Source: Thermoproteota archaeon (GTDB taxonomy: Archaea > Korarchaeota > Korarchaeia > Korarchaeales > Korarchaeaceae). From it: a DNA stretch of 64,000 nt. A program made the position numbers and the translations under genes. The stretch covers positions 1 through 64,000 of the forward strand of contig JAOZGC010000002.1 in the NCBI GenBank assembly GCA_027491915.1. Reading direction: 5' to 3'. Shown one piece after another: positions 10,173-54,600 of this stretch; the first letter of the stretch is position 1; each line of letters starts with the position of its first letter. Under the pieces are notes generated by a model. The model was not told where the DNA came from and ran no database searches. It saw only the letters and a list, made by a program, of their open reading frames with translations.

Positions 10173-10248
10173 GGGCCGGTGGTCTAGCGGCCATGACGCC
10201 GCCTTGACGAGGCGGAGGTCGGGGGTTCGAGTCCCCCCCGGCCCACCA
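10173..10248 (+). tRNA. tRNA-Val(GAC)
   Basis: Cloverleaf: GGGCCGG acceptor, CCGCC-TTGACGA-GGCGG anticodon arm, GTTCGAGTC, encoded ACCA. Confidence 0.97.
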
Positions 10249-16922: not shown

Positions 16923-17012
16923 TGGTGGGCCGGGGGGGACTCGAACCCCCGACCTCCGCCGTTTCCTCCCGCGGGAGTGAGGGCGGCGTCATGGCCGCTA
17001 GACCACCGGCCC
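16923..17012 (-). tRNA. tRNA-Val(CAC) with a 14-nt intron (16963-16976) at position 36/37
   Basis: Body nearly identical to tRNA-Val(GAC); CCGCC-CTCAC[TCCCGCGGGAGGAA]AC-GGCGG; bulge-helix-bulge-like fold CCTC/GAGG. Confidence 0.9.
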
Positions 17013-17067
17013 CCTGTGAGATTCCGGGAGGGCCATAAAAAGGTTGGTGCGGTACCGATCTCCAGAC

Positions 17068-17088
17068 GGGGGCTCGGTACTCAAGATC
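17068..17088 (+). repeat. Left att direct repeat GGGGGCTCGGTACTCAAGATC
   Basis: 20/21 identical to 27836-27856. Confidence 0.9.
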
Positions 17089-17246
17089 AAATTTTTTGTC
17101 GTGATCAGGGGATAACCGGGATCTTCCCCTACCGAATAAGGGGACTTTCTAACGCTTATTAGCTTTTCCCCCGGGGGTACTGATCAACCCCCGCGTCGGG
17201 AGGAAGGAGTGGGGATTGGTCACCATTATTGAAATCCGGGATTTGG

Positions 17247-17365
17247 CCGCCAATTTTTCTCTGGATTCCCAGAGCGATCTGCCATAGCAGAGGCGCCAAA
17301 ATTATCGGCACCCGATAATTGCCGGTTTTTCTCGCGAAAAGGAGAGAGAAGAGCGGGTTTCGCTG
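17247..17365 (+). repeat. 119-bp inverted repeat, copy 1 (palindrome-rich)
   Basis: Exact reverse complement of 23853-23971. Confidence 0.95.
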
Positions 17366-18039
17366 TCGCGGTGAGGGTTGGGTGGTTCTGGACGCTCGAA
17401 GAATGGCATGCCACTTTCTTCCGGGGTCAAGATCCCCGATATCCCCTCGGCCAGGTCGGCCGCCGCCCCCTGGAGCCGCAGCAGGGAGGCGACCAGTAGG
17501 GCGGGGACCGCCGCGACCTCCACCAACATCAGCGCGACGACGGCGGCCGCCGCGGTCATGCCCACGAGATCCCAGGGGTCCGCCCCGGGGGGAGGGACCG
17601 GGGATCCACCCCCCCCGACCACCGCCAGGGCGGACTCCAAGGCCCCGGTCAGCGGGAGGAGCGAGACCGCCAGGGCGGAGGAGGTCGCGCCCACCCCGAT
17701 CGCGCCCACCACCCTGGCGGCCCTGGAGACCTCCCACCCCCTCCTCCTCAGGAGCGCCACCACGACGGGGGTGGCGGCGTCCGAGACCAGCCTCACCATC
17801 CCCTGGAGCCCGATCGTCCAATTCGACCAGAGCCCCGCCAGGGCGGCGGGCAGCCCCTCGATCAGCACCGCCGCCGCGGCGCCCAGGGCACCCGGCATCC
17901 CCAGGGCGGCGGGGATCACGCCCCCCGCCACCAGGGAGCCCAGGGGAAAGAGACCCATCATCCCCCCCAGGACGGCCCCCATCGCGGTCCTGGCGGCGAA
18001 CCAACTCCCGATCCCGATCCCCCCGGCTGGTCGACTCAC
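17302..18039 (-). CDS. Element-encoded Ala/Gly-rich multi-pass membrane protein
   Basis: Several hydrophobic segments; GTGA overlap with the upstream nuclease stop; 3' end runs into the 119-bp repeat. Confidence 0.6.
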   Translation of the reverse strand: MSRPAGGIGIGSWFAARTAMGAVLGGMMGLFPLGSLVAGGVIPAALGMPGALGAAAAVLIEGLPAALAGLWSNWTIGLQGMVRLVSDAATPVVVALLRRRGWEVSRAARVVGAIGVGATSSALAVSLLPLTGALESALAVVGGGGSPVPPPGADPWDLVGMTAAAAVVALMLVEVAAVPALLVASLLRLQGAAADLAEGISGILTPEESGMPFFERPEPPNPHRDSETRSSLSFSREKPAIIGCR

Positions 18040-18488
18040 AGCAGGCCCGCCCACCTGAGCCACCTCTCGAGGTTCCTGGGGGTCAACCTCCCCAGTCTCC
18101 CGCCCCTCCCCGGCCCGACCCACACCCAGGCCCGGGCCTTGGATAACAGGGTCTCGGGCCTCTTGGGAAATCCCAAGACCCCGACGACGCAGAAGGGCTC
18201 CGGGTGCTCCCTGCGAAAGGCCCTATTGACCCCCCTGATCAACCCATCGAGGCGGCGGGAGCCCTTAACCTCCACGAAGGCCCTGATTCCCCTCCCGATC
18301 AGCTCGATGTCATAGGGGGCGTGGTCCGACTGCGTTACAACCCTCACGTCCGGCAGGTTGAGCCGGGCCAAGATGATCTCCAGGGCCCCGGCAACCGTCC
18401 GCTCGAGCCTCCTACCCATCCTTTTGTTGTAGCCGCCGAGGGCGGACCTCGGGGAGACGCGGACCTCGGGGAGACCATTGTCATCCAC
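18036..18488 (-). CDS. PD-(D/E)XK nuclease (Hjc/restriction-like)
   Basis: GRRLE...APYDIEL...FVEVKGS; start uncertain. Confidence 0.75.
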   Translation of the reverse strand: MDDNGLPEVRVSPRSALGGYNKRMGRRLERTVAGALEIILARLNLPDVRVVTQSDHAPYDIELIGRGIRAFVEVKGSRRLDGLIRGVNRAFRREHPEPFCVVGVLGFPKRPETLLSKARAWVWVGPGRGGRLGRLTPRNLERWLRWAGLL

Positions 18489-18673
18489 CTTCCCACTACC
18501 CCCCCAACTGATCTCCCCCAGGGATCCCTTTTGTTTTATTTTTGAACGGAGTGAAAGTTTCCAATACCTCCAACTGCTTGGGGGAGGGAGGCAGCGGGGG
18601 GAAATCCGAGGCAGAACAGAGTCGGAGAGTGTGAGATGAAGGGCTGGGAGGAAAATGCGGCCGGAGATGGGCC

Positions 18674-20308
18674 TCAACTTCTGCCACCGGCTGCTGGAAG
18701 CCTCTTTATGACCCTGTCGTACTTGGACCCGTGGGCTCTGAGGTGGGCCCTGTAACGCTCGACCTCCAGGGTTCCGCCCAGGTTCCCCTCGCTGTCACGC
18801 CAGAACCTGAAGCCCATCACCCTGAGCTGGATCCTATTCTTCCTCGACCTCAGCATCTGCTCGACCTTGCTCGGGGCTATCGCCATCTGGGCTCGGGGTC
18901 CCCAGACCTGTCTGGCCCAGGCGGCGGGCTGAGAGATCGAGAAGCTGAAGACCTCACGCCCGTCGAGCGGGGCCCTGAGCTTGAAGATCTCAACGAATAA
19001 CGCGAGTTTTTGGGGGATGCGGTCGAGTATCATGGTCTCGGGAGGCGGCAGCTCTATCTCAAGCTGGTCCAGCTCGTCGAAGTTTTCCCCCTGTAGGAGC
19101 CGAGCCCTGGCCAGCCAGTACCTGTACCTCCTCCTGGCCTCCTCGAACTCCTCCTTGAGCTTCCTCCTGGGGACCAACTCAGCGTACAGCTTGCTGAGTC
19201 CGGCGGCATCTTCTGAACTCTTAGGTTCCGGCATCCTGAGACTCATGGGGGGAGGAAACGTCACGAGTTCGGCGTGCCCGCTCTTGGCGATGAAGATCCA
19301 CTTGCCGGGGATCATCCTGCGCATCGGAACCACCGTGTGGATGACGGCCTTGGAGATCGGGAAATACTTGGCCAGCTCCTTCCTCTGCCTCTCCTCCTTC
19401 AGGTTCATGGGGTGGATGAAGACCGCCTGAGTGTTATCGAGGAGAGTTTTGGGGACGCTCTGGACGTTCTGAACCTCGTAGAAGACCCTGGTAAGGGCTG
19501 TCCTGGTCTGTCTGAGCAGGGTCACGAAGTTCTCGATCCTCTCCCTCAGGTGCCAGGTGGAGCCCATCGCCCCGACCCTGGGGGCCACCTCCCTCAGCTC
19601 GCGGAAGTGCACGATCATCCTGGCGTCCTCTATAGCCTGAACCAGGTGCCCCATGAGGTTGTCCAGCACGACGTTGAGGGCGAACCTCCCCAGGTCCCGC
19701 ACGGAGGGCTTGAAGTACGCGCCGCTCAGCACCGTGAAGTCGCGCCTCTGGACGATCTCGACGAGCCTCTCGGGCTCGAGGGGCGATTCGTCTGCCAAGA
19801 ACCCAGAAGTGAGGAGGGCCAAGAGCCTGGGGCTCACCTTCTCCCCCCTCTTCCTGAGCAAGGCCTCGATTATGGCGTCGAGCTCCGCGTCCGGCCCGCC
19901 GGCCGAGTAATAGGCGTCGAACAGGTCCCTGGTCTCCGAGGGGCTCAGGAAACCCCCAAGGCTCCTAAAGTGCCCGAAGCTGAGCATCTTAATGCTCAGG
20001 GAGGCCAACCTGAACCTCGTGGGCACCGCATCCATGGCCAGGGGGAAGTTGAAGGTCAGGTACTCGGTATCCCATCCCCTCGGCTCCAGGCCCCTGGCCC
20101 TGAGGGAGAGGGCCTGGACCCCCCTCGCCGGGAGGTGAAGGGTCTCGTCCTCTCCCTTCACGTCGATCACGAGGGGGTGCCAGCCCCTCAGTGCCAGGAG
20201 CTCGAGGACTAGCTGAGCCGTCCACGTCTTGCTTGCGCCCCTTATCCCTATGAAGCCGATGCAGGACGTCTCCCGCGCCAGGATCTGCTGGAGGTACTCC
20301 TCGCTCAA
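18674..20308 (-). CDS. HerA/VirB4/FtsK-superfamily ATPase
   Basis: GIRGASKT (Walker A variant), LVIDVKGE, HFRELRE, LLRQTR, VQNVQSVPKTLLDN. Confidence 0.7.
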   Translation of the reverse strand: MSEEYLQQILARETSCIGFIGIRGASKTWTAQLVLELLALRGWHPLVIDVKGEDETLHLPARGVQALSLRARGLEPRGWDTEYLTFNFPLAMDAVPTRFRLASLSIKMLSFGHFRSLGGFLSPSETRDLFDAYYSAGGPDAELDAIIEALLRKRGEKVSPRLLALLTSGFLADESPLEPERLVEIVQRRDFTVLSGAYFKPSVRDLGRFALNVVLDNLMGHLVQAIEDARMIVHFRELREVAPRVGAMGSTWHLRERIENFVTLLRQTRTALTRVFYEVQNVQSVPKTLLDNTQAVFIHPMNLKEERQRKELAKYFPISKAVIHTVVPMRRMIPGKWIFIAKSGHAELVTFPPPMSLRMPEPKSSEDAAGLSKLYAELVPRRKLKEEFEEARRRYRYWLARARLLQGENFDELDQLEIELPPPETMILDRIPQKLALFVEIFKLRAPLDGREVFSFSISQPAAWARQVWGPRAQMAIAPSKVEQMLRSRKNRIQLRVMGFRFWRDSEGNLGGTLEVERYRAHLRAHGSKYDRVIKRLPAAGGRS

Positions 20309-21414
20309 TCGGTCTCCCTCCTTCTTCCCCCCTTGAGCAGGGCCTCCTCTATCTTACTCTTGGGGAGGCCCCTCTCGGTCACGATCGAGAAGGCCCTGTT
20401 GAGCACCTCTGGGTACTTGCTGGCTATCTGGCCGATGGTGTAGTTGGCGAAATCTATCATGGTCTGGACGAGGGCCCCGATCGGGAGGTCACCCTCGTTC
20501 ACGTGACCCACGCCTCTTTTGGATCTATTGGCGGCGATCCAGGCCCTGTACACCTCTTCGGGATTGTAGACCCTTATGGTCTTCTTCTCCACCTTCCAGG
20601 TAAGGAAAGGCTTCTTTCTCGTGTGATCCCCCACCTCTATCCCCGCGGCCCTGGCGAGGGGCAGGACGTTCGAGACGAAGGCGGTTATCTTATGCTCTAT
20701 CTCATAGAAGGCGAAGTATTGGGCCAGGACCTTGGCCAAGGCGTCAGCGATCTCCCTCCGGAGACTTTGATTTTCCTCGACGGATCCGACCGGGGTGACG
20801 TACTGAAACACGTCGACAGCTTTCTCTGGCATTATGTGAAGCTCCCGGCCGTCCAGAACCACTACCTTCCCGTCGAACTCGCCCCCCCTGATCTTCAGAA
20901 ACTGAAATACGCTCCCCTCCAGCCTCCCCTCGTAGAGGGTCCAACCGCGATTCCTGATCAACTCCCAGATGACGGCTGCCGCTTCCTTGGGAAGTTCCAT
21001 CGAGATCCCCCCCGTCTCATCATCCCTCCTCACTCGGTACTGGTTCCTCATTCTCTTGTTCTCGGCCCTGAGCCGCTCGATCTCTGCCTTGAGGCCCTCA
21101 ATCTTGCTGGACAATTCTCTGAACTTGGCCAACAGGGAGGAGGCCTCATTCTTGGTGAATTCGACGGAGAACCAATCAAAATATGTGCGGTGGAGCCTTT
21201 TCCTCACCTTGTCCAAGGCCCTCTGGGCCGCCGACGAGTCGACCTTCACCGACGAGTCGACCTTCAGGGGGACCAGGCTCTCCGTGGCCTCCCCCGCCTC
21301 TGCGGGGGTTTTTCGATCGTTTACGGGGGTATCGAGAGGACAGGCCCACCGAGATCTCCCCGCCAGACGTGAACGGTTTTCAGATCGGTGTGTGCGGGTT
21401 TCCGCCCGAGACAT
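20305..21414 (-). CDS. Element hypothetical protein with a coiled-coil segment
   Basis: ATG overlaps the recombinase stop (TGATG); heptads LSSKIEGLKAEIERLRAEN. Confidence 0.7.
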   Translation of the reverse strand: MSRAETRTHRSENRSRLAGRSRWACPLDTPVNDRKTPAEAGEATESLVPLKVDSSVKVDSSAAQRALDKVRKRLHRTYFDWFSVEFTKNEASSLLAKFRELSSKIEGLKAEIERLRAENKRMRNQYRVRRDDETGGISMELPKEAAAVIWELIRNRGWTLYEGRLEGSVFQFLKIRGGEFDGKVVVLDGRELHIMPEKAVDVFQYVTPVGSVEENQSLRREIADALAKVLAQYFAFYEIEHKITAFVSNVLPLARAAGIEVGDHTRKKPFLTWKVEKKTIRVYNPEEVYRAWIAANRSKRGVGHVNEGDLPIGALVQTMIDFANYTIGQIASKYPEVLNRAFSIVTERGLPKSKIEEALLKGGRRRETD

Positions 21415-21983
21415 CAACCGCCCACCCCCCTCAGAACCTCCAGGGCCTTGGCCTTCTGCGTATACCGGAGGAGGTGGCTCAGGTCGCTGTGTCCAAGGAT
21501 CTTTGCTATCAGTTGGGCGCTCACACCCCTCTCCGCCAGGCGGGTGACGAAGGCGTACCTCATGCTGTGCGTGTTCACTCCGAGGTGGTACCTGGCGAAG
21601 GCCTTGACCCGGTGCCGGTTCAACCCGCCCACCACGGGGGAGACCAACCTGAGGTCCTCCCGGGTCACGGACCTGGGGAGGACGACCGTCCTGGTCTGCG
21701 GGACGCGCTTCTTCTCGATCCGGACCTCCACCTCCCTCTCCCCCGTCTCGCAGAACCTCCTCAGGGCCTCGATGGCCTCCCCAACCCGGCACCCGTTCCT
21801 CAGCTGAATCAGGAGGACCAGGATGTCGGCGAGCCTCCCGATCCTCCTGCGTCCTCCCCTCCTGGCCGACTCCCTGGCCTCCCTGAGCATCCTGGTGAGC
21901 CTCCTCATCATCCCCTCGTAGTCGACCCCGCGGTCCCAGGTTCCAGGGACCCCGCGCCTCCGACCTGACGGTCTGGCCGTCAC
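21414..21983 (-). CDS. Small tyrosine recombinase (catalytic domain only)
   Basis: IQLRNGCRVGEA (R), EKKR (K), THSMRY (HxxR), ILGH, LLRYTQ (Y). Confidence 0.88.
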   Translation of the reverse strand: MTARPSGRRRGVPGTWDRGVDYEGMMRRLTRMLREARESARRGGRRRIGRLADILVLLIQLRNGCRVGEAIEALRRFCETGEREVEVRIEKKRVPQTRTVVLPRSVTREDLRLVSPVVGGLNRHRVKAFARYHLGVNTHSMRYAFVTRLAERGVSAQLIAKILGHSDLSHLLRYTQKAKALEVLRGVGG

Positions 21984-22087
21984 GCCACCTCACCTCCCCT
22001 TACTCTCGCCCCGATCGGATCCGGGGAGTCCTCCTGCGGTCTGCCTTCCCCTTAGGTCGATAAGGGGAGCGGAGGGTGCCCCGGTCC

Positions 22088-22411
22088 TCATCCGGACACC
22101 TCCCTCTTCTTCCTCTTCCCGGGAGGTCTGAGGACCTCGAAGTCGACTATCGCGGTCTTGACCAGCGCGATGCCCTCGCTCCTCCTCTTCCGCCCGCCCT
22201 GGAGGGTCCTCCCGTAGGTGAGAACGAGGTAACGTTCGTCTGAGGTGTTCAAGAAGCCGATGTACTCCAGCAGGATGGGTCTCTCGAGCTCCTCCTTCGG
22301 GTCTACAGAATCCTCGAAGGAGAAGTGGTCGAGGACGACCACCCTGACCAGCGCGCCCTCGGGCGCGTTCTCCCAGGGTGGCCTCTTTTCCCTCCTCTCC
22401 GACGCAGTCAA
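22088..22411 (-). CDS. Element hypothetical protein
   Basis: Co-oriented, coupled ORF; beta-rich. Confidence 0.6.
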   Translation of the reverse strand: MTASERREKRPPWENAPEGALVRVVVLDHFSFEDSVDPKEELERPILLEYIGFLNTSDERYLVLTYGRTLQGGRKRRSEGIALVKTAIVDFEVLRPPGKRKKREVSG

Positions 22412-22788
22412 GATCGGACACCTCCCTCTCCCCCCGGCCGGCCGTCTGCCGCCGACCCGACCCGAGCGAGGAGGATCTCCCCGCCCAACCGGGCGGCCAA
22501 GTCGGCCAGGCCGCCCACGTGCGGCGGATCCAAGAGCCTCCTCTTGCCCAGTCCCAGCACGACGGGGGGTCCCCCGGACCTGAGCCTGACCCTGGCGTAG
22601 AATCCATCCCTCCAGAACAGCTCGACGATCGACTCGAGGGTGACCCGCTCCAGCAGGAGCCGGGAGCCCCTCGGCAGCTCGGTCAGCACCCGAACCAAGC
22701 CCTCCCTCCGTCTCCGCATCCCATCACCCCACGTAGTCCAACTCACCCCCATCTCTCCCCCCTCCCCTCCCTCCCGCCAGATCGTCAA
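22408..22788 (-). CDS. Element hypothetical protein (start uncertain)
   Basis: Co-oriented ORF overlapping its neighbours. Confidence 0.5.
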   Translation of the reverse strand: MTIWREGGEGGEMGVSWTTWGDGMRRRREGLVRVLTELPRGSRLLLERVTLESIVELFWRDGFYARVRLRSGGPPVVLGLGKRRLLDPPHVGGLADLAARLGGEILLARVGSAADGRPGGEGGVRS

Positions 22789-23419
22789 CGAACCTCTCGA
22801 TCAGCTCTGGGGTCTCCCTCCTCCTGCTCTCGAGGAACCGCCCCACCCTCTCGGAGTAATCTCTCAGCCAGGAAGCCCTCGGGAACGCCCTCACGAGCTC
22901 CCCATAGGATCGGAGGTGCATGCCCGCCAGCACCTCGTCCGGGACGGAACTGAAGAGCCTCAGCAGGGTCGAGATCCTCCTGAGGTGGACCGCGGACTCT
23001 TCCCCGACCCGGAGGTCGATCACCACGACCTCCCTCCCATCGGAGAGTCCCAGCTTCCCACCCTCGAGGATCTCCGAGACGAAGTCGAATAGCGGGGGGA
23101 GGAAGAGGTAGGCCCGCCTCAGGGGTTTCTCCCTCCCCCGGACGACCCTGACGTTCAGGATCGCCAGGGTCGGGAGCACCACCTCGAGCCTGAGCTCCAA
23201 CTCACGGGGGTTCGGGAGGTCCCTGACCCTCAGCCTCCTGTCGACGATCACCGGGAGGGTCGGGCTCGGGGGGGATCCCCAACCCTCCTCTCCCCTGATT
23301 TCGAAGAACCCAGCATCCCCCGGTCCGACGATGAAGATGCTCTTCCCCCCCAAGAGGCGCCTGAGGTGCCTCGTGAGGTCGGAGGTGGGGAGGAGCTCGA
23401 AGGTTCGGACGGAGCTCAC
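22724..23419 (-). CDS. Element hypothetical protein
   Basis: GTGA-coupled to the 724-aa gene. Confidence 0.65.
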   Translation of the reverse strand: MSSVRTFELLPTSDLTRHLRRLLGGKSIFIVGPGDAGFFEIRGEEGWGSPPSPTLPVIVDRRLRVRDLPNPRELELRLEVVLPTLAILNVRVVRGREKPLRRAYLFLPPLFDFVSEILEGGKLGLSDGREVVVIDLRVGEESAVHLRRISTLLRLFSSVPDEVLAGMHLRSYGELVRAFPRASWLRDYSERVGRFLESRRRETPELIERFVDDLAGGRGGGRDGGELDYVG

Positions 23420-25590
23420 GGATTGACACCTCCCACCTCTCCCCCCGGGAGGAGGGGCTCGGCCTTCCCGGTCTGGATCAGAACGCGGGCCACCTCCCTG
23501 GGGAGCCGGACGACCCTCCCGGGGGAGAAGGGGCCGGCGGTCCTCAAGCTTCCGTCCTCCCCCACCCCAACGACGAAGGACTCGACCTCCTCCAAGATGC
23601 GGACCACGACCCTCCCGTCGTCCACGTACTCCACCAGGACCCTGGTAGTCGACTCTCTCTCCCCACAGAGTTCGCAGACCCCGCCGGAAACCGACTCCCT
23701 CTTAAGGATGACTGCGCCGGGGTGGCCCGAGAGGTCACCCAGGCAGGACGGGCAGACGTCGATCCACTCCCGGGTCCGGGCGGCCGGCGCCTCCGGGGGT
23801 TCGGGTTGAGGGGAGGGACGAGAAGGTGGAGGGGTGGCTTTCAACTCTGAGTCAGCGAAACCCGCTCTTCTCTCTCCTTTTCGCGAGAAAAACCGGCAAT
23901 TATCGGGTGCCGATAATTTTGGCGCCTCTGCTATGGCAGATCGCTCTGGGAATCCAGAGAAAAATTGGCGGACGAATTCGGAATTCTCAATATTCCGGTG
24001 ATCGTTGATCCCGACCACCACCCGCATCCGCGGGTGATACCTCCTGAGCCTCCCCAGAGCCTCATCGAGCGAGAACTCCTCGAGGATCTCCGACGCCGAC
24101 AAACGCCTCCTTCTCCCGCCGATCTGATCCGGCAGCCAGATGTGGATGAGAGCCCGCCGTCGGTCCTCCGGGTCCTCCCTCCTGTCGACGTAGCCCGCCG
24201 CGAGCAGGGGTCGAATGTATCGCTTCCGGATCCGGTCGGAGGAGATCCTCTCCCCGCGGACCTCGAAGTACCGGTCCCCGATCTCGTCGTAGCCGACATC
24301 CTCCTGTCCTTCCTCGGCGAGAGGTTTTAAGATGTCCCAGTAAAACCGGAGGACGTCCTCCGCAACCCCCGCGAAGGTGGACTCGTAGACCCTCTGAAAG
24401 AGTTCCACCGCGTCGACGTAGTCCTGAAACGTTGCTAGGATGGAGCTGGCCCCGTCTCCCTCCATCACAACGGGCCTCTGGTTAGCCCTCAGGGCGGCAA
24501 AAATTTTAACCAAAATCAGAAGTTTCCCCAGGTCCCGCATGTCACGCGGGAACCTCATTCCGTAGGCCTTGGCGACGATTGGACCGAACAGGACCCTCAC
24601 CCTGAGCCCTTTCTCGAACTCGTCTCGGAGCCACCCGACATATCGTCTGATCGTGTCGCGGAGGAGTCTCAGCTCCGGATTGTCGAATTCCTCGGGGTAC
24701 CCGGCCTCCAGCCCTATTTTCTCCCCCGCGGCCTGGTACTTATGCCCCCCCATCTTAGGGGTCAGTGTGAGCGTCCTCGTCTCTAGGTAGTTGAGGGGCT
24801 GCTCGGAGCAGAAGATCGCGACGGGCCAGCCCCTCAGGACCACGGTCTGGGTTCGGAGGGACCCCCCCCTCGGCCTATCCGCGAACTTCCAGACGATCTC
24901 GCGTCGATCGTGGCTGAGCAGGGGCTTGAGCCGGTTGAAGGTCTCCAGGTGTGGGGGCTCGAGGAAGAGAAGCACCTTCCCATCGAGGTCGACGACCGTC
25001 CTAAGCCCAGCGACGACCTCGTAGTACGCTTCTTTACTCCTCCTCCTCAACTCCCGCAGGAGGGCGGGATCGACCGGCTGGCCCGAGCTGTCCTCCAGCC
25101 TCCCGCGCTCGTGGACGAGCGCAGTGGGGCTCATCCCCCCGAGCCACCAGACATCCTCCTCGGGGAGGAGGGAGAGGGCCATGATCGCAGTGTAGGTCTT
25201 CCCGACGGACTTCGGGCCCAGGAGGGCCAAGTTCAGGGGGTCGACGTAGGCCGACAGGCCCGCGAGGAACACCGCTAACCCCGTGACCTCATCCTCCCGC
25301 ACGTAGTGACCCAAATAGGCGAGGATGACTGGGAGGGGATCTGGCATGAGGGCTAGGCTGGTTTTCCGCGAGACCTCGGACCTCAGCCACCCGTGCCAGT
25401 CGACCGCGGGCACCCCGAGCGCCTCCTCGACGTCCCGAGGGTCCACCTGTTCGAGGAGGAGGTAGGGTCCGATTTCTCTATCCTCCTTAGCACCCGAGCG
25501 CCTGAGCCAGAACGCCGCCGTAGGGCCGTCCCGCCAGAGCACCTCGATCCGCCCGTCACAGGCGACCGCGACGACCCGCTCAGCCTCCAT
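23416..25590 (-). CDS. Element replication protein: P-loop (AAA+/helicase-like) domain, wHTH, Cys4 motif and C-terminal GINS B-like domain
   Basis: LLGPKSVGKT Walker A, LLFLE, LETR, wHTH (YIRPLLAAGYV...DPEDRRR), CPSC..CELC, VRILEEV..GPFSPGRVVRLPREVARVLIQTGKAE. Confidence 0.75.
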   Translation of the reverse strand: MEAERVVAVACDGRIEVLWRDGPTAAFWLRRSGAKEDREIGPYLLLEQVDPRDVEEALGVPAVDWHGWLRSEVSRKTSLALMPDPLPVILAYLGHYVREDEVTGLAVFLAGLSAYVDPLNLALLGPKSVGKTYTAIMALSLLPEEDVWWLGGMSPTALVHERGRLEDSSGQPVDPALLRELRRRSKEAYYEVVAGLRTVVDLDGKVLLFLEPPHLETFNRLKPLLSHDRREIVWKFADRPRGGSLRTQTVVLRGWPVAIFCSEQPLNYLETRTLTLTPKMGGHKYQAAGEKIGLEAGYPEEFDNPELRLLRDTIRRYVGWLRDEFEKGLRVRVLFGPIVAKAYGMRFPRDMRDLGKLLILVKIFAALRANQRPVVMEGDGASSILATFQDYVDAVELFQRVYESTFAGVAEDVLRFYWDILKPLAEEGQEDVGYDEIGDRYFEVRGERISSDRIRKRYIRPLLAAGYVDRREDPEDRRRALIHIWLPDQIGGRRRRLSASEILEEFSLDEALGRLRRYHPRMRVVVGINDHRNIENSEFVRQFFSGFPERSAIAEAPKLSAPDNCRFFSRKGERRAGFADSELKATPPPSRPSPQPEPPEAPAARTREWIDVCPSCLGDLSGHPGAVILKRESVSGGVCELCGERESTTRVLVEYVDDGRVVVRILEEVESFVVGVGEDGSLRTAGPFSPGRVVRLPREVARVLIQTGKAEPLLPGGEVGGVNP
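23853..23971 (-). repeat. 119-bp inverted repeat, copy 2 (inside the replication gene)
   Basis: Exact reverse complement of 17247-17365. Confidence 0.95.
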
Positions 25591-25855: not shown

Positions 25856-26038
25856 TCACCCCTCACCCGCGGCCTTTATCCCGACCCTCTCCAACTCCCT
25901 CCTGACGAGGTCTCGGATCAGCTCCGACCTCGTTGTGTAGCCTAGTTTTTTGATCAATCTCCATGTCGCGGCATCTAAGTCGTACGGAACCCGCACGAAC
26001 CAAATAATAGACCTCCCACCAGCCTGAGGCCTTCCCAT
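25856..26038 (-). CDS. Ribbon-helix-helix (CopG-like) regulator
   Basis: WFVRVP..LD...LGYTTRSELIRDLVRR. Confidence 0.8.
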   Translation of the reverse strand: MGRPQAGGRSIIWFVRVPYDLDAATWRLIKKLGYTTRSELIRDLVRRELERVGIKAAGEG

Positions 26039-26105: not shown

Positions 26106-26459
26106 CTAGCCTCTCCTTATATTCTCTTCATATTTTCCCATGCTTATAATCATTATATTCGAAAAGTGGCCTCCAATGGTCATTTGTGGACATACGCCTC
26201 CCCTGAGGGTTCGGGAGATGTCGCCATTAGGATTGAGCGCCTCCACCGCCTCCCCCACCCTCATGGCGTTCCTCAGCTGGATCAGGAGGATCATCCTGTT
26301 CCTCAGGCCGGCGAGCTTCTTTCTCCCCCTGGTCTGCCTGGCCTCCTGGGCCAGGGCCCGGATGTCCCTCTCCAGGGCCCGGCGGGCGGCGTCGTAGTCG
26401 ACCCCCCGGGCCCAGGTCCCCCTCTTCGCCTCCCCCCCTAGGCGCGTTCCTCTTCGCAT
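26106..26459 (-). pseudogene. Truncated paralog of the small tyrosine recombinase (N-terminal part only)
   Basis: GTWARGVDY...LLIQLRNAMRVGEAVEAL matches 21414-21983 (GTWDRGVDY...LLIQLRNGCRVGEAIEAL); similarity ends near 26235. Confidence 0.75.
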
Positions 26460-26602: not shown

Positions 26603-27745
26603 TCACTCCCTCCCGTTCTGACCCTTCTCCCTCAACACCTCTGCCAACGCCCTTATCAGGGGTTCCCTCACCCTCGGGTCGCTCAAGAGCCTCAGGATCA
26701 TCTCCTCGAACTCCCTCTTCTCCCTGGCCGCCTCCCTCCTGGCCCTCTCGGTCAGCGGGTAGCCGCACCTCAGGCAGAACTCGGCCTCCCTGGGGTTCAC
26801 GTATCCGCACTCCGGGCACGTCAGGGGCTTGAGGGCCTCCACCCTCCTCCTATCCTCCCTCTCGGGAACCTCCATCCCGTAGGCCTTGAGTATCGCCCTC
26901 TCGGCGTCCCTCCCCGAGAGGTGGACGTAGACCGAGGCCATCTTGGAGTCCGGGGTCCAGCCGGCGAAGACCTTCAGCTCCTGCTCCGTCAGCCTGGTGG
27001 CCAGGTGGGTCAGCCTGGTGTGCCTCAGGGTGTGGGGGTGCACCCTCCTCCCCAGGCCGGCCTTCCTGGCGGCGTACCTCACGACCGCGGCCACCCCCCC
27101 CTCGGACATCCCCTCCACCCGGCCGCCCCTCCCCACCCTGGCGAACAGCGGGGCGTCGGGGTTCCCCGGGTCCGGGTGCACCAGGAGCCACTCCCTCAGG
27201 TAGGGAGCCGAGTTGACCAGGGGGACCGTCCTCTCCCCGGTCTTCCCGGACACCCTGATCTTGTACCCGTACCCGGTGCGCTCCAGGTCCCTCATCCTGA
27301 GGGAGCACAGCTCCCCCACCCTCAGGGCCCCCTCGTACAGGACCGCTATCGCCGCCTTGGCCCTGGGGGAGCGGGCGGCCCTCACCAGGGCCTCCACCTC
27401 CTCCGGGGAGAGGACCTCGTCCCTCAGGTTCCTCCTCCTGGCCCTGGGGGAGGATTTCCACCAGGCCAGGGGGTTGTCCCCGGGCCTGAGCCAGGAGTAG
27501 AAGGCCTTCAGCCTGGTCAGGTAGGTGTCCACCGTCGCCCCGGAGAGGGACGAGGCCAGGGTGTCCCTGAACCTCCTCAGGTCCCCCTCCGTCGCCCCCA
27601 GCGGGTCGATCCCCTCCCCCGCCAGCCTCTCCAGGGCCAGGGTGTAGACGTCCCTGGAGTGGGGGTTGGTCAGCCCCCTCTCCGAGAAGAACCTCTCCAC
27701 GGCCTCCCTCAGCTCTGGGGGGAACCTGGCCAGCCTCCTGGCCAC
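26603..27745 (-). CDS. int: Tyrosine integrase with C-terminal zinc ribbon
   Basis: GALRVGEL, SGKTG, HPHTLRHTR, AGW, SVYVH, CPEC..CLRC; frame is open to 27832, GTG 27745 preferred. Confidence 0.95.
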   Translation of the reverse strand: MARRLARFPPELREAVERFFSERGLTNPHSRDVYTLALERLAGEGIDPLGATEGDLRRFRDTLASSLSGATVDTYLTRLKAFYSWLRPGDNPLAWWKSSPRARRRNLRDEVLSPEEVEALVRAARSPRAKAAIAVLYEGALRVGELCSLRMRDLERTGYGYKIRVSGKTGERTVPLVNSAPYLREWLLVHPDPGNPDAPLFARVGRGGRVEGMSEGGVAAVVRYAARKAGLGRRVHPHTLRHTRLTHLATRLTEQELKVFAGWTPDSKMASVYVHLSGRDAERAILKAYGMEVPEREDRRRVEALKPLTCPECGYVNPREAEFCLRCGYPLTERARREAAREKREFEEMILRLLSDPRVREPLIRALAEVLREKGQNGRE

Positions 27746-27835
27746 CTTCGTCTCCTTCTTCTCCCTGGCCGGCCTGCCCAACCAACCACCCGCGTCGCCC
27801 GCGCCCGATCGGATAAAAAGAGATCGCCACAAAAT

Positions 27836-27856
27836 GGGGGCTCAGTACTCAAGATC
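27836..27856 (+). repeat. Right att direct repeat GGGGGCTCAGTACTCAAGATC
   Basis: 20/21 identical to 17068-17088; overlaps the sRNA D guide, D box and terminal stem. Confidence 0.9.
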
Positions 27857-27948: not shown

Positions 27949-28308
27949 ATGGGCGACCAGATACCCCCCGAAATAGGGCGGATAATCAATATCTTATTTG
28001 TAAATGACGGAGGTCATAGAAAGAACAATCTGAGTGAGGTCCAACATAAAATTAAGGAAATTCGAGAGAGGGCCGACTCGGATTTCATCTCCGGTCTCGC
28101 CTTGGCCGCAGAGGGGGCGCTGACGGCCGTTGTGGAGGGGAGGGAACTCAGCCTCCCGGCGAGGATCCTGCGAGGACGGCGGAAGACTCTCCTCGAGGCT
28201 ATCTCAAGGTGGAGGCTCCCTCCGGCGCGCCTAGAGATGGAGGAGGGCTACATCTCCTTCTGGAGAGAGGTGGCCAAGATTGCCGGCATTGATCATCGCG
28301 GGAGGTGA
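27949..28308 (+). CDS. Hypothetical protein
   Basis: Open frame with host-like codon usage. Confidence 0.55.
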   Translation: MGDQIPPEIGRIINILFVNDGGHRKNNLSEVQHKIKEIRERADSDFISGLALAAEGALTAVVEGRELSLPARILRGRRKTLLEAISRWRLPPARLEMEEGYISFWREVAKIAGIDHRGR

Positions 28309-29387
28309 TACCTCCCCCTCCCCTTCTCCAACAATCCCCTGTTGACGTACTCTTCGAGAATCCTCCTAGCCTCCGTTATGGTGGTTCCCAACGCCCTGGA
28401 TGCCTCTATTATCGACACTCCATTGGACCTCGAGGCCAGGGACGCCAGCTCATCCGGGAGAGATCCCTTGGCCAGTTCCCTCGTTCCCCCTATCAGCCTC
28501 AGGAGGTCATCCTCGGTCGGCACGGTCCTGGACTGCTCCACCGCCAGGTGGGCGAGCACCATCCTGGCCAGCCTCAGCAGCCTCCTGGGGTTTCCTCTGG
28601 CCATTTTATTCATTTCTTTTATTAATTTTTCCGTGAATGGTGCTAAATTATCCCCATTTTCCGCTTTTATTCTATAATTTCTGAGCCTCTTCCTTATGAT
28701 CTCGACGGCCAGCTCGTCCGTGATCTCCGGGACCCTCATGACCTCCGCCCGCTGAATGAGGCTTCCCAACCTTGGCACCGCGGCGGGCACGCAGGAGATC
28801 AGTATGACCTTACCATCGCGCAGGGAAGAGTGGACCTCCCCTAGGAAGGTCACGAAGGCCGTTGAATCCCTCTTGGTGCCGCTGACCACAACGTTCTCTA
28901 TCTCATCCAGCATGAGCAGTAGCCTCGGGATCTTGTTTGCAGCCTCCGCCACCCTCCTCGCCAGTATCTTTATTCCCCTACTTCCACCTTCTCTGTGGCC
29001 CTTCCCAAAGAGCGGAAATCTCGGTCTGCCGAATGCACGCAGTATCTTCTCGGCCGACTCTAGGGCGTCGTCCGAATCTATCTTTACGTAGATCCTCTCG
29101 GCGTCGGCTAGGCTCTCCGACACGTATCTCAACTTCTGAGTCTTACCCATTCCAAATCTTCCTATTAATATGATTAATTTTTTTCCGTTTCCGCTCAGAG
29201 AATCCCTTATTACTTTCAGAAGCCTTTCATCAAACTCGGTCTTCACGTGGAGCGCGGCCACCTCGGGGGCCCCCTCGCTCGATAGGAACGAGAAGGGGTT
29301 GCCCCTCAGGGACCACCTGAGGTACCCCGCCTGGACCACCGCGCTCCTCTCTCCCTCGAACATCTCGGCCGCACCAGCCGACCCCAA
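28293..29387 (-). CDS. AAA+ ATPase with C-terminal wHTH
   Basis: NPF, GRFGMGKT, LMLDEIE, GNPRRLL. Confidence 0.8.
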   Translation of the reverse strand: MGSAGAAEMFEGERSAVVQAGYLRWSLRGNPFSFLSSEGAPEVAALHVKTEFDERLLKVIRDSLSGNGKKLIILIGRFGMGKTQKLRYVSESLADAERIYVKIDSDDALESAEKILRAFGRPRFPLFGKGHREGGSRGIKILARRVAEAANKIPRLLLMLDEIENVVVSGTKRDSTAFVTFLGEVHSSLRDGKVILISCVPAAVPRLGSLIQRAEVMRVPEITDELAVEIIRKRLRNYRIKAENGDNLAPFTEKLIKEMNKMARGNPRRLLRLARMVLAHLAVEQSRTVPTEDDLLRLIGGTRELAKGSLPDELASLASRSNGVSIIEASRALGTTITEARRILEEYVNRGLLEKGRGRYHLPR

Positions 29388-30563: not shown

Positions 30564-31748
30564 ATGCCCCCAACCAGCGATCTGACCGCGACGAGGGTGC
30601 TCCTAAATCCAGCCGCCCTATCCAGCTCGTATCTCCCCAAGGATCTTCCTCACAGAGACAAAGAAGTTAGAATCCTCTCATCCGTGGCCGAGAGGTACGC
30701 CATCACCTCCATCACCCCACCGGCAATCCTGATAAAGGGTAGGCCGGGGGTCGGCAAGACCGCCGTCTCGCTGAACTCAACCCTAGGCAGGTTCGATTCG
30801 GAGAGGTTGAGGGTTATCCACGTCAACTGCAGGAAGTATCCCTCCCCAAACACGGTCGTGAGGATAATATCCAGGGGAGTCGGCGGGCCCTTCGTCCCCG
30901 AGAGGGGGCTCTCAATGGGGGAGCTCATTCTCTTCTTGGAAGAGGGCTTGGCGGCCGGGGCGACTCCAACGGCCCTGATACTGGACGAGATAAACTATCT
31001 TCGGGATCCAGCCGATCTAATCTATGCGCTCCTCAGGATCCACGAGACCTCCAAGGTCAGGGTGCCCCCCATGCTGATACTCATATCCCGAGAGTGGATC
31101 CCGGAGTTCCTCTTTGAGAGGTCGATCTGGAGCTTCTTCTCCATTAGATTAAACCTCAAGCCCTACACAAGGAACCAGCTGTATGACATAATCAGATACA
31201 GGGCCAGGGAGGCGCTCGATCCGCGCTCTTACGACGACAATCTCCTCATGTACATAGCGGAGGCGGCCTCAGTCTCCGGCGACGCCAGGCAGGCCATCCG
31301 CCTGCTATACAGGGCCGCCCTCTTGGCGGAGGCGAGCGACAGTTCTGAGATCACTTTAGAACACGTCAGAATCGCCGAGGCGGAGGACAGCCCCGTGATG
31401 GATCGGGCGGCCGTGGATCAGCTCTCGGTTCACGAGAAATTAATCCTACTGGCAGCCGCCAAGAGGTTGAAGGAAAAGCAAGCGATGTGGCTCAGAATGG
31501 GGGAGTTGGAGGGGGCCTATCGGGAGATCTGTGAGGTATACGGGGTTCCCCCTTTCAAGCACACCGCCGTGTGGAGGAGGGTTAAGAATTTATCTTCTGA
31601 AGGCTACATCTCAACCAGGCGTTCCGGAGAGGGGATGAGGGGACAGACCACACTTATCTCAATAAACGGACCCTTGGAGAGGTTGATTCAGATAATAGAG
31701 GGAGATCTCGACACCAATCTGGGTAAGTGGCCCGAGGACTGGAGCTGA
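30564..31748 (+). CDS. cdc6: Orc1/Cdc6 replication initiator
   Basis: YLPKDLPHR, GRPGVGKT, VNCR, ILDEI, SGDARQAI, C-terminal wHTH. Confidence 0.93.
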   Translation: MPPTSDLTATRVLLNPAALSSSYLPKDLPHRDKEVRILSSVAERYAITSITPPAILIKGRPGVGKTAVSLNSTLGRFDSERLRVIHVNCRKYPSPNTVVRIISRGVGGPFVPERGLSMGELILFLEEGLAAGATPTALILDEINYLRDPADLIYALLRIHETSKVRVPPMLILISREWIPEFLFERSIWSFFSIRLNLKPYTRNQLYDIIRYRAREALDPRSYDDNLLMYIAEAASVSGDARQAIRLLYRAALLAEASDSSEITLEHVRIAEAEDSPVMDRAAVDQLSVHEKLILLAAAKRLKEKQAMWLRMGELEGAYREICEVYGVPPFKHTAVWRRVKNLSSEGYISTRRSGEGMRGQTTLISINGPLERLIQIIEGDLDTNLGKWPEDWS

Positions 31749-51666: not shown

Positions 51667-54600
51667 TTGACCGAGATGTACGATGAGTCTGAGGACTATT
51701 TAAAAGAGATATACAAATCGTTCATCTTAGAATTCACCGATGAGAATGGAGTGCCAAAATATAGGCAGTTAGTGACCCAGATGATAGACAGAAAGAGGAG
51801 GTCCCTCCCGGTGGACTATGAGGACCTCAGGGACTACCTGCCGACGCGAGACCTGGCCAGGGAGCTGCTGTCTCACCCGTCCCTTCACATAAAGGCGGCC
51901 TCAGAGGGACTCGCCGATATAGTCTCTTCCAGAATGATCGAGCTCGGATCCGGGTCGGCGGCAGATCTCTACGCGAAACTGCCCTTTCACGTCCGTATAA
52001 GGGGGCTGCCGACCAGCGTTGGCATCAGGGAGATCCACTCCTACCGGCTGGGCTATCTGATCCAGGTCCCCGGGATAGTGACGAGGATCTCAGACGTCTT
52101 CGATCGGGCGATAAAAGTGGCCTACTCCTGTCCCCAAGGCCACGTTCAGTACTACGAGCCCGGAGAGGTCTCTAAAGCCTCCAAGATAACCTGCCGAGAG
52201 TGCGGAGAGCAGATGAAGATGGATCCGGAGAAGACCATATTCGAGAGCTGGCAGGTCATCCGCCTTCAGGAGAGACCAGAGGACCTGCCCCCGGGGACCA
52301 TGCCAAAACACATCGACGCCATACTGACCGACGACCTGGTGGACGAGGTTAAGCCCGGGGACAGGGCCGTCATTACCGCCGAGATAAAGCTCAGAGCGGC
52401 CAGATCGAGGGAAGACGCAGGCTATGGCGTCTTGTTTAAGAGGTATCTTCTTGTAAATCATGTGGAAGTTCCCGCCAGAACTTATGAAAAAATAGATATA
52501 TCTGAGGAGGATAAGCAGAGAATATTGGAGCTATCCAGGGATCCGGATATAGAAAACAAGATAGTGGGATCTATAGCCCCCTCCATCTACGGGATGAGGT
52601 TCGTCAAGAGGGCCATAGCCCTCGCCCTCTTCGGGGGCAGGGGGATGGAGCTGCCGGACGGCACCAAGGTTAGGGGGGAAATAAACCTACTTCTGGTTGG
52701 GGATCCTGGGACCGCGAAGTGCATCGCCCCTGGTACCGTGGTCCTGGTCGAGGATGGGGTCGTCCCGGTGGAGGATCTAATCCCTGATCCGGATCCCGGC
52801 GGCAATCCTGACTCCGAGAGGCTGATCTCGAGCGACGTTAAGATACTGTCTCTCGACTCCGACCTAAAGCTCAGGTGGGTCGAGGCTGCGGCCGTGTCAA
52901 GGAGGCGGAATTGGGGGGACTTGATAGAGATAACCACCGAGAGCGGGCTCAGGATCCGTGTGACCGCCACTCACCCGGTCCTGACGATCAACAAGGAGGG
53001 ACTCATGGAATTCGTTCAGGCCTCCAACATGTCCGAGGGGGACTACCTCGCCGCCCAGGGAAAGATCCCCGCGCCGCCCGCGTTCGCGGCGGAACCGGAT
53101 CTAGGTGGAGCAGACTCGGCCGATTTCGCGGAGCTCCTCGGAGCGTTGCTGCATTCGGCCTCCGTAGAGCAGGATGCGATCAGATTCCGGGTCAACGATT
53201 CCTACCTGGGGAGGATCGAGGCCCTCTTCCCTAAAGTCTTCGGCGGCGCGCTCGAGGAATTCCACTCCAAGGCGGGCGGATCCGTCATCTGCCGACTGAG
53301 GCCGGGCGATCCGGCGGCCGACCTCCTGAGGGAGTACCTCTCCCCCCACAAGACTATACGCTCAATTCCGAATTGGCTCATATTCGGCAGGCGGGAGACT
53401 TTGGAGAGGTTCATCTACGGCTGGATCATGGCCAACTCCCGGACCATAAAGAAGGAGAAGAGGCTGGCCATACCGACCCGGAACGAGCCGACGGCCCATC
53501 AGCTGAGGATGGGCCTGATGAGGTTGGGGGTTCCATTCCCCGAACTCAGGAGGATGAGCTCCGGAATACGCGTCTGCCTGAGGGGCGGGGATTTCAAGGT
53601 CCTCTCCGATAGACTGGCAGCCTCGGGGCTCAATCTTCCAATCCCGCCAGAGCTAGAGAACTCAGGAGGTTTTGATGATAGGATTCCCCACCTAGGGAGA
53701 TTCTTGCACAAGATCAGGAAGGCGATAGGAATCACCATCTCCGAGATACCCATTCCCCAGCAGACCTACAGGAGGTACGAGGACGGCGCGTCGGCCATCC
53801 CCCGATCGAGGCTGCTAGCCGTACTCGAGTCTTTCCGCCGAAAGGTGTCCCAACTGTTGGACTCCGGGATTGAGGTGGATGGGGACGTCCTGGATCACCT
53901 GGCTTACCTAGAGGAAGTCGCCAGGTCGGACATCGTGTGGGATAGGATAATCTCGGTGAGACGGGTTCACGGATCCAGGTGGGTCTACGACGTTGAAGTT
54001 CCATTCACGAGAAATTTTGTCGCCGCTGGATTCGTAGTACACAACAGCCAGCTGCTGAAGTACACAGCCCAGCTGGCTCCGAGGGGGCTGTATACCACCG
54101 GCAAGGGGGCCACGGCCGCAGGTCTGACGGCCGCGGTGGTCAGAGATGCATCCACGGGAGGGTGGACTCTAGAGGCCGGGGCCCTGGTACTGGCAGATAG
54201 GGGAACGGCCTGCATAGACGAGTTCGACAAGATGAACGAGGACGACAGGAGGGCTATTCACGAGGCTATGGAGCAGCAGACGATCTCCATAGCCAAGGCT
54301 GGGATAGTAGCAACCCTAAACGCCAGAACCACGATAATAGCCGCCGCAAACCCCAAGAGGGGGAGGTATGATCCACTGCTGAGCGTGGCCGACAACATAA
54401 ACCTGCCGCCAACGATACTCTCCAGGTTCGACCTGATCTACGTGTTGAGGGACCTGCCCCAGGAGGACAGGGACGAGCTGGTCGCCGAGCACATACTCAG
54501 CGCCAGGATGGGGACCAACCCAAACGTGAACCCCCCGATTCAGTTGGACCTCCTTAAGAAGTACATCTCCTTCGCCAGGGAAAACGTCTCCCCAGTCCTA

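Follow-up and report, generated by a model that had tools for sequence, protein, structure and literature searches.

A perfect inverted repeat in a putative integrated plasmid-like element of a korarchaeon: dedicated switch or duplicated linker of a replication gene?

Why should an archaeal chromosome carry the same 119 nucleotides (nt) in opposite orientations on the two sides of a gene for a small tyrosine recombinase? The question is raised by a stretch of 64,000 nt from a Thermoproteota archaeon of the Korarchaeaceae (GenBank assembly GCA_027491915.1, contig JAOZGC010000002.1, positions 1 to 64,000; "the window" in what follows), in which the repeats lie inside what appears to be an integrated plasmid-like element and one of them lies within its putative replication gene (rep). 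The initial annotation, made from the sequence alone, read the arrangement as an invertible segment or as an amplification system like that of the yeast 2-micron plasmid. We tentatively favor a different reading, in which the repeat is an inverted partial duplication of the hairpin-rich linker of rep whose arms are kept identical by recombination and which may flip by homology, without having been built as a switch.

The repeat is where the initial annotation had placed it. Positions 17247–17365 are the exact reverse complement of 23853–23971, a block that runs unbroken from CCGCC to CGCTG in pairwise alignments, and a repeat search widens it to inverted arms of 133 nt (left arm, 17233–17365, plus strand; right arm, 23853–23985, minus strand) that are 96% complementary and spaced by 6487 nt. 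The DNA between them (17366–23852), the inner arc, is the segment that an inversion would turn around. A search with 62 nt of the arm finds exactly two occurrences in the window and none in 100 shuffles, and neither blastn at word size 7 nor an nhmmer profile found a third copy in the window. The weaker similarity that had been noticed on the outer side proved real as well, and it extends on that side only: a gapped alignment reaches 17220 and 24001, 14 to 27 nt past the core, and with the alignment anchored at the boundary of the core, the score is 12 on the outer side (0.8 ± 1.5 in shuffles, 0/400 of which reach 12) and 0 on the inner side. A score of 12 was reached by 2/400 random segments of the element (maximum 101, presumably the arms themselves), and the significance belongs to the anchored test, as unanchored local alignment of the outer flanks alone gave none. 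Just outside the 119-nt block, 30 alignment columns hold 6 mismatches and 3 gapped positions, whereas inside it there is not a single difference. Such a contrast is not uniform divergence and therefore speaks for a recent transfer of sequence between the arms; we infer that gene conversion between the inverted repeats is the simplest source of their identity.

What, then, are the arms? The right arm lies within a gene for a replication-type protein of 724 amino acids (aa) (Rep; 23416–25590, minus strand) that consists of a P-loop core, a MarR-like winged helix, a linker, and a tail with a Cys4 ribbon and a Gins51_C-like domain, and it codes for residues ~536–580 in the interdomain linker. Its outer end encodes SEFVRQFFS, which aligns with the end-of-core motif of relatives (EEVYEEYFS, EELWNSYF, PDFRQRFFA), and the distance from this motif to the next semiconserved F, counted by hand on the alignment, is 32 residues in both Rep and the relative P0003. 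The ends of the arm coincide in the alignment with family motifs, one of them the motif that closes the core, and relatives have linkers of the same length; the right arm is therefore native rep linker DNA and not an insertion. Two relatives (P0002 and P0024) terminate at the end-of-core motif, which therefore marks a domain boundary. In composition, the linker DNA stands apart from the gene around it: the GC content at third codon positions (GC3) is 0.41 in the right arm, the minimum of the gene, compared to 0.83 before and 0.82 after it, and the GC content of the arm is 52% versus 64% for the element.

The left arm lies in a zone of noncoding character between the last gene of the element and its left border. 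The last 21 codons and the stop codon of the open reading frame (ORF) 17302–18123 extend into it, and the GC3 of this ORF falls from 0.9 to 1.0 down to 0.53 to 0.63 below ~17450. In a tblastn search, Rep residues 520–579 matched 17191–17364 at 78% identity, with an in-frame stop; residual homology to rep is visible to 17220, and inspection by eye of the alignment and its extension by hand shows indels of 3, 3, and 2 + 1 nt between rep and the outer zone. Because of the stop codon in the rep frame and this pattern of indels, the left arm may be read as a fragment of rep-like coding DNA that derives from the Rep gene itself or from a related element. As it stands, it is a noncoding inverted copy in the control region beside the left border.

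The label "replication protein" is a reasonable one for Rep on sequence grounds, because it has a P-loop, with G130 and K131 invariant in the alignments, and a MarR-like winged helix (seen in the match of a 75-member profile to MarR-type winged-helix structures, E = 2.5e-6), because 1 of 13 aligned relatives has an N-terminal AEP primase domain, and because the Atlas neighbors include PF27228, a family named after a Methanothermobacter plasmid protein, in 10 to 27% of members. The core common to the relatives spans residues ~80–485 and has no Pfam match in this copy. A word-indexed search found 6 relatives and an exhaustive search found 1215 representatives at E ≤ 0.001, 300 of them at E ≤ 1e-30. 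The tail is a different matter: residues 662–711 match Pfam Gins51_C (E = 2.2e-6), the Cys4/Gins51_C tail is absent from the best 150 relatives, and residues 581–724 gave no usable Atlas match and no stand-alone homolog in a search that covered proteins of 79 to 252 aa and not longer carriers. Rep had no tblastn match in plasmid or phage collections, and a literature search under MTBMA_p00010 found no publications on the family.

A direct repeat, found through the shared 12-mer GTACTCAAGATC at 17077 and 27845 and then extended to 21 nt, joins 17068–17088 (attL) with 27836–27856 (attR) at 20/21 identical positions (best of 100 shuffles, 16/21). It delimits an island of 10.77 kb with an integrase gene adjoining one border and rep inside. 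By its borders, its integrase, its operon of a ribbon-helix-helix (RHH) gene and rep, and its composition, the island is a predicted integrated plasmid-like element, and an excised form would be circular. Because the att-like repeat bounds the element, the arms would divide this circle into arcs of 6487 nt and about 4015 nt, which bears out the ~6.5 and ~4.0 kb given at the outset. The inner arc contains the C-terminal domain of Rep, ORFs of 231, 126, and 107 aa, the small recombinase, and ORFs of ~362, 544, 213, and 273 aa, several of which overlap at stop and start codons. In a simulated inversion, the rep ORF runs through the arm, continues for 44 unrelated codons, and stops, which gives a protein of 623 aa versus 724 aa. 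The Cys4/Gins51_C-like tail is thus lost, just as the initial annotation had foreseen; the detached tail follows a stop codon, and by eye its first possible in-frame start is a TTG located just past the arm. Furthermore, the inversion would part the stop/start-overlapping genes behind rep from the RHH-rep promoter region.

In our model, some 150 nt of the rep linker region would be present a second time, inverted and noncoding, in the control region beside attL, a position that on the excised circle would be located just upstream of both attP and the promoter of the integrase gene. This linker DNA, translated in frame in rep, is an AT-richer array of 6 to 7 short hairpin-forming dyads. The array probably serves the replicon in cis, as an origin or operator, and this would account for its retention at both places. 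The arms would exchange sequence by gene conversion, and if the exchange were resolved as a crossover, the inner arc of 6.5 kb would flip, be it in the chromosome or in the circle. The agent would be host homologous recombination, or an integrase with a homology-dependent activity of the pTN3 kind, and not a dedicated invertase. Precedents exist in the archaeal literature. Passages of PMC8371274 describe that the pTN3 integrase recombines identical segments down to 104 bp and that homologous recombination of two related elements, the integrated TKV2 and TKV3 of Thermococcales, inverted part of a chromosome. Identity of ~100 bp thus sufficed there for integrase-driven inversion in hyperthermophilic archaea, and the arms described here have 119 bp. 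Unlike in pTN3, however, the larger integrase of the present element is XerA-like and the att site lies outside the gene, and for the pT26-2 integrase, the portion of PMC7253208 that deals with it gives site-specific recombination only. Inversion isomers of the Halobacterium replicons pNRC100 and pNRC200 arise through inverted repeats of 33 to 39 kb, according to an excerpt of PMC1447603, by homology and with no dedicated switch; these are archaeal replicons with inverted repeats, too, but the present repeats have 119 bp, belong to a different kind of archaeon, and have one arm inside a replication gene.

A further sign of earlier rearrangement, which we count in favor of the duplication model, is a truncated paralog of the small recombinase beside the integrase gene (26106–26459, minus strand, between the integrase and RHH genes), detected by direct repeats, BLASTP (E = 5e-16), and tblastn. 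Its residues 14–75 are 52% identical over 62 residues to residues 14–74 of the intact enzyme, the homology breaks off where the AT-rich promoter region of the RHH gene is reached, and the ORF has its own ATG with a T-rich stretch upstream. The paralog is left over either from an earlier recombination or from a second, related element.

Several points weigh against the duplication model. Neither orientation polymorphism nor gene conversion was seen directly, and the exchange is read from one assembly. A very recent duplication that landed beside similar sequence would give the same picture, and for homologous recombination to be efficient, arms of 119 bp are short. A pTN3-type activity in either of the element's two recombinases is hypothetical. 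The gene for the small recombinase sits within the segment, a frequent arrangement for invertases, and our screen of related loci (see below) required repeats of at least 30 nt, so short core sites would be missed. Finally, the compensatory palindrome and the dyad enrichment described next point to both copies as functional sites, and this suits a purely cis-acting role no less than the duplication model.

The arms carry the dyads AAATCC-G-GGATTT, TTGGC-C-GCCAA, CTCTGG-ATTC-CCAGAG, TCTGC-CATA-GCAGA, AATTATCGG-CAC-CCGATAATT, and TTTTC-TCGC-GAAAA, with stems of 5 to 9 bp and spacers of 1 to 4 nt. We counted 12 dyad matches in the arm compared to 1.3 ± 1.3 in shuffles (0/500 reach 12), and 6 to 7 distinct dyads per 133 nt compared to a mean of 1.7 ± 1.5 for the window. 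The perfect 9-3-9 palindrome AATTATCGG-N3-CCGATAATT is exclusive to the two arms. In the outermost palindrome of 13 nt, the arms differ at 5 positions (AAATCCGGGATTT versus GAATTCCGAATTC) and 5/5 changes keep the palindrome, for which random substitutions give a p of about 0.0013. Because of the dyad excess, the dyad density, the GC3 minimum, and these palindrome-keeping differences, the module appears to be under constraint at the nucleotide level. Another dyad-rich stretch, 22451–22620, proved to be GC-rich simple sequence.

These observations lead to an alternative that is possible but, in our view, rather doubtful: the arms could be two working copies of one cis-acting module (origin, operator for the CopG-like or winged-helix protein, terminator cassette, or RNA element) that is required both within rep and in the control region near attP, and inversion would be irrelevant. 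In an antisense version of the same idea, a minus-strand transcript through the left arm would be perfectly complementary over 119 nt to the linker of the rep mRNA, comparable to plasmid copy number control by structured antisense RNA. The dyad enrichment, the palindrome-keeping differences, and the restriction of the 9-3-9 palindrome to the arms all argue for a module of this kind, and proteins that might bind it are at hand: the element encodes a CopG-type RHH protein of 60 aa at the head of the operon, upstream of rep (25856–26038, minus strand; Pfam RHH_1, E = 2.3e-5, 24.6 bits versus a cut-off of 20.5), and Rep itself has the MarR-like winged helix. Oligo-T is an archaeal termination signal, and each arm has two T5 tracts (23888–23892 and 23960–23964; 17254–17258 and 17326–17330) within a short direct repeat, GCCGCCAATTTTTCTC/GCCGGTTTTTCTC. 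The rep-sense strand of the element has 5 T5 tracts in all, 2 of them in the right arm, and it is conceivable that transcription terminates early at these tracts inside rep. The rep-sense RNA of the arm folds at −57.2 kcal/mol with a z of −3.0, and a second fold has a z of −2.0 (3 and 8 of 200 shuffles, respectively, were as stable). Consistent with an origin, archaeal plasmid origins are portrayed in parts of PMC6972569 as AT-rich, with direct and inverted repeats, and often located beside rep.

On the other side, the z scores are modest and no RNA family came to light: at gathering score, Rfam found six tRNAs only in the window, and for 17000–17500 at E ≤ 10, the best match had an E value of 0.057, far below gathering score. 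A promoter for a separate small RNA in the arms was not established either, with TATA-like words only. Above all, selection on a site does not yield 119/119 identity beside ~70%, and a recent exchange between the arms is therefore still needed.

Is the recombinase gene between the arms, correctly located there by the initial annotation, the agent of such an exchange? It encodes a tyrosine recombinase of 189 aa that consists of the catalytic domain only (21414–21983, minus strand; Pfam Phage_integrase, E = 2.5e-10), with R66, H139, R142, and Y174 (R...H-x-x-R...Y) invariant among 10 aligned sequences. It matches the PHROG integrase family phrog_9208 (E = 3.7e-35); relatives annotated as "integrase" are carried in 25 records of ATV, SMV, STSV, and related viruses (31 to 36% identity) and by the plasmids pMEFER01 (40%) and pGE2 (35%). 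Matches to NCBIfam models of the "tyrosine-type DNA invertase" (E = 9.4e-6 and 0.006) are far below cut-offs and stand among Xer and integrase models. By these similarities, the enzyme belongs to the family of small type II integrases found in archaeal mobile elements. In the relevant part of PMC6972569, enzymes of the pMEFER01 type (pT26-2 family of Methanococcales) are classed as type II integrases, and int is sometimes found in mid-element, as it is here. Unlike those elements, the present one has a second, larger integrase beside att. A pairing of this sort occurs in Pyrococcus abyssi pGE2 (NZ_MN477947.1, 200–718 and 22822–23943), in which, on one strand and spanning the record's start point, a 172-aa relative is located directly upstream of a 373-aa integrase; no TnpB-like match was found beside this homolog, and the combination of a small and a large recombinase resembles the one in our element.

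A scan of representative genomes yielded 47 loci with a relative of the 189-aa recombinase, 16 of which have at least 3 kb on both sides. Self-comparison (repeats of at least 30 nt, E ≤ 1e-3, a screen that short core sites would escape) found bracketing inverted repeats in 2/47 loci (L024 and L034), which are 2 of the 16 well-flanked ones, and both times they consist of TnpB/IS605 copies. The recombinase family is therefore not characterized by long inverted repeats. The arm itself had no match in the 47 loci by blastn and nhmmer, except for one chance match of 18 nt (E = 0.16), and no relative of Rep or of the other element proteins was found there, except for one match to the large integrase (L041). 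In L024 (8177–9745) and L034 (10637–11932), both from Desulfurococcales-type bins, the recombinase gene lies no more than 260 nt from a gene for TnpB (IS605 OrfB/Cas12f-like), and more TnpB copies or fragments are found nearby in inverted orientation. We considered the small recombinase as a partner of TnpB in an insertion sequence, and rejected this, as the adjacency is seen in 2/49 recombinase-bearing loci (50 searched) and is not general. Two other loci, L001 (9876–10325 and 13068–13514) and L006 (188–597 and 6544–6949), each have two copies of the small recombinase gene in direct orientation with 73 to 76% DNA identity, and thus paired paralogs of this gene recur; a 54-nt overlap of the contig ends suggests that L001 is a circular element of ~19.3 kb.

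With an enzyme of the integrase family, bracketing repeats at 2 of 16 well-flanked loci, both of them TnpB copies, and no alternative cassette, the dedicated, recombinase-driven switch that had been proposed finds no support in our tests, and we regard it as unlikely. In this scenario, the 189-aa or the 409-aa recombinase would toggle the element between full-length Rep with an expressed operon and truncated Rep. The repeat would thus form a partly intragenic inverton that steers a program of replication and maintenance in an archaeal plasmid of the hyperthermophile type, the flipped state silencing the downstream operon. Several features would suit it. The recombinase gene lies inside the segment, its product has the size of invertases that consist of the catalytic domain only, and the invertase models do match, if weakly. 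Rep relatives that end at the linker suggest that a short form could be active. A target of the Flp type consists of two inverted binding elements of ~11 to 13 bp around a spacer of 6 to 8 bp, and the 9-3-9 palindrome, alone among the arm dyads, can be reread as 7-7-7, which is core-site-like.

One arm of the repeat is intragenic, as in the "partial intergenic invertons" of bacteria, in which one repeat lies in a gene and one outside and inversion recodes or truncates the protein; the portion of bioRxiv 10.1101/2023.03.11.532203 concerned with them documents such partly intragenic cases in bacteria and lists a few for archaea (12 putative invertons in 42 archaeal data sets). Published invertons, however, are defined by reads in both orientations, whereas the present case comes from one assembly and has a segment of 6.5 kb with nine genes. 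Other evidence speaks against a program: the recombinase family is one of virus and plasmid integrases, an inverted repeat other than that of an insertion sequence was found at 0/16 well-flanked related loci, the arms are far longer than a site-specific system needs and their identity stops abruptly, and they derive from rep and not from dedicated sites. In addition, the other arm offers no alternative cassette, as the flipped gene would gain 44 unrelated codons and leave behind a tail lacking an in-frame start before the TTG. This last point separates the locus from the haloarchaeal virus phiCh1, for which Rossler and colleagues reportedly described in 2004 an invertible segment with int1 between clusters of inverted repeats in coding sequence; there, both arms are said to lie in paralogous structural genes, so that functional C termini are swapped, whereas the second arm here is noncoding and supplies no alternative domain.

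Could the arms be mobile DNA in their own right? A nonautonomous element (a miniature inverted-repeat transposable element or a palindrome-associated derivative of the IS200/IS605 type) with two insertions, one of them in frame in the rep linker, would be hairpin-rich, AT-richer, and noncoding-like, as the arms are. Terminal inverted repeats and target duplications, absent around the arms by eye, are also lacking in IS200/IS605 derivatives, and TnpB elements do occur beside relatives of the small recombinase in L024 and L034. Nevertheless, we consider this improbable. The linker does not exceed that of relatives in length, its ends match family motifs, and the perfect block of 119 nt is not a multiple of three. 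The window has two copies only, the arm DNA has no blastn match in plasmid or phage collections, and an exact search with a 23-mer from the arm gave 0 matches in 596 Gb of representative genomes, which do not include the host genome. A screen of 63 ORFs revealed no transposase, and a transposon bounded by the arms was rejected because the Rep tail lies inside.

An assembly artefact, in which the assembler created the inverted copy or the orientation of the segment, is still harder to credit. The perfect block is so short that it comes near common k-mer sizes, and the repeat was seen in a single contig; however, Rep is in frame over both right-arm junctions, from the conserved motif into the high-GC3 tail, the left arm has its own diverged flank with palindrome-keeping changes, and the repeat is internal to a contig of 687 kb.

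The yeast 2-micron plasmid has its Flp/FRT system within inverted repeats of 599 bp, and amplification of the Flp kind, by which arm recombination during bidirectional replication turns a fork and many copies arise per initiation, requires an origin asymmetric to the repeats and a recombinase that acts on them. The likeness of our element to it is one of geometry alone, that is, a circle that would be cut into two arcs by a perfect inverted repeat, with a tyrosine recombinase encoded aboard, and the present arms have 119 bp and derive from rep coding DNA. We regard such amplification as highly improbable because the recombinase belongs to a small archaeal integrase family unrelated to invertases in the tests made, and because both an action of either recombinase on the arms and the placement of an origin would have to be assumed.

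All genes of the island are on the minus strand, in the order of transcription a 409-aa integrase, the truncated recombinase paralog, the CopG-type RHH protein, an 89-aa ORF, and the 724-aa Rep, followed by three small ORFs, the 189-aa recombinase, and the ORFs of ~362, 544, 213, and 273 aa. The integrase (26603–27832, minus strand; Pfam Phage_integrase, E = 1.4e-20), with a C-terminal zinc ribbon (Zn_Ribbon_1), adjoins attR, which lies immediately upstream of its gene; it matches the NCBIfam XerA-like model with an E value of 1.8e-22, under the family cut-off, and its real start is probably further inside the ORF. The GC3 of element genes is 0.79 to 0.95 (0.68 in one composite ORF) versus 0.63 to 0.84 for host genes, which fits a foreign origin or a different expression regime. 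The whole element had no Megablast match in plasmid and phage collections, and the 544-aa ORF had none among PDB sequences. Two perfect tandem duplications are found in the element: 17 nt × 2 at 18442–18475, in the interval that separates the 544-aa ORF from the next gene's probable ATG (18419), and 18 nt × 2 at 21231–21266 in the 362-aa ORF, where the peptide VDSSVK is repeated.

At the left border, attL lies 56 nt upstream of the 5′ end of a tRNA gene with an intervening sequence (16923–17012, minus strand), which marks the integration site on the host side and was identified by ARAGORN (with an odd 4-base anticodon), by an Rfam tRNA score of 53.3 bits, and by k-mers shared with 10173–10248. 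Both halves of this gene are nearly identical to the tRNA-Val(GAC) gene at 10173–10248, 6.7 kb away on the opposite strand. Archaeal integrases usually use the 3′ half of a tRNA gene, whereas the att repeat here is situated upstream of it. A tRNA-derived att site was considered and rejected, the tRNA body being repeated nowhere except in the paralogous tRNA at 10173.

The window itself is archaeal chromosome, with Pfam matches to exosome, proteasome, RFC, and Orc1/Cdc6 genes and to an MCM gene with an intein. The MCM gene (51667–55116) encodes 1149 aa, with the intein splicing domain at residues ~389–793 within the P-loop domain. Just past attR follow a gene for an AAA_22-type ATPase with a C-terminal helix-turn-helix-like match (28293–29387) and, 1.2 kb further, the Orc1/Cdc6 gene (30564–31748), and the element may lie close to a chromosomal replication origin.

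The meaning of the locus depends on whether the arms recombine. If they do, it would be a compact natural test of how identical repeats of ~100 bp reshape archaeal mobile elements, and it would show a replication protein keeping or losing an accessory domain by the flipping of DNA. If they do not, the repeat would be an ordinary relic of rearrangement between related elements, and the use of the analysis would lie mainly in the annotation of a new integrated plasmid. Should a programmed switch after all be true, it would mean that one member of the small "integrase" family, widespread in bicaudaviruses and archaeal plasmids, acts as an invertase. Within the rep linker, finally, the hairpin array is a concrete candidate for the origin or operator of a large family, the 1215 representatives of which were counted above at E ≤ 0.001.

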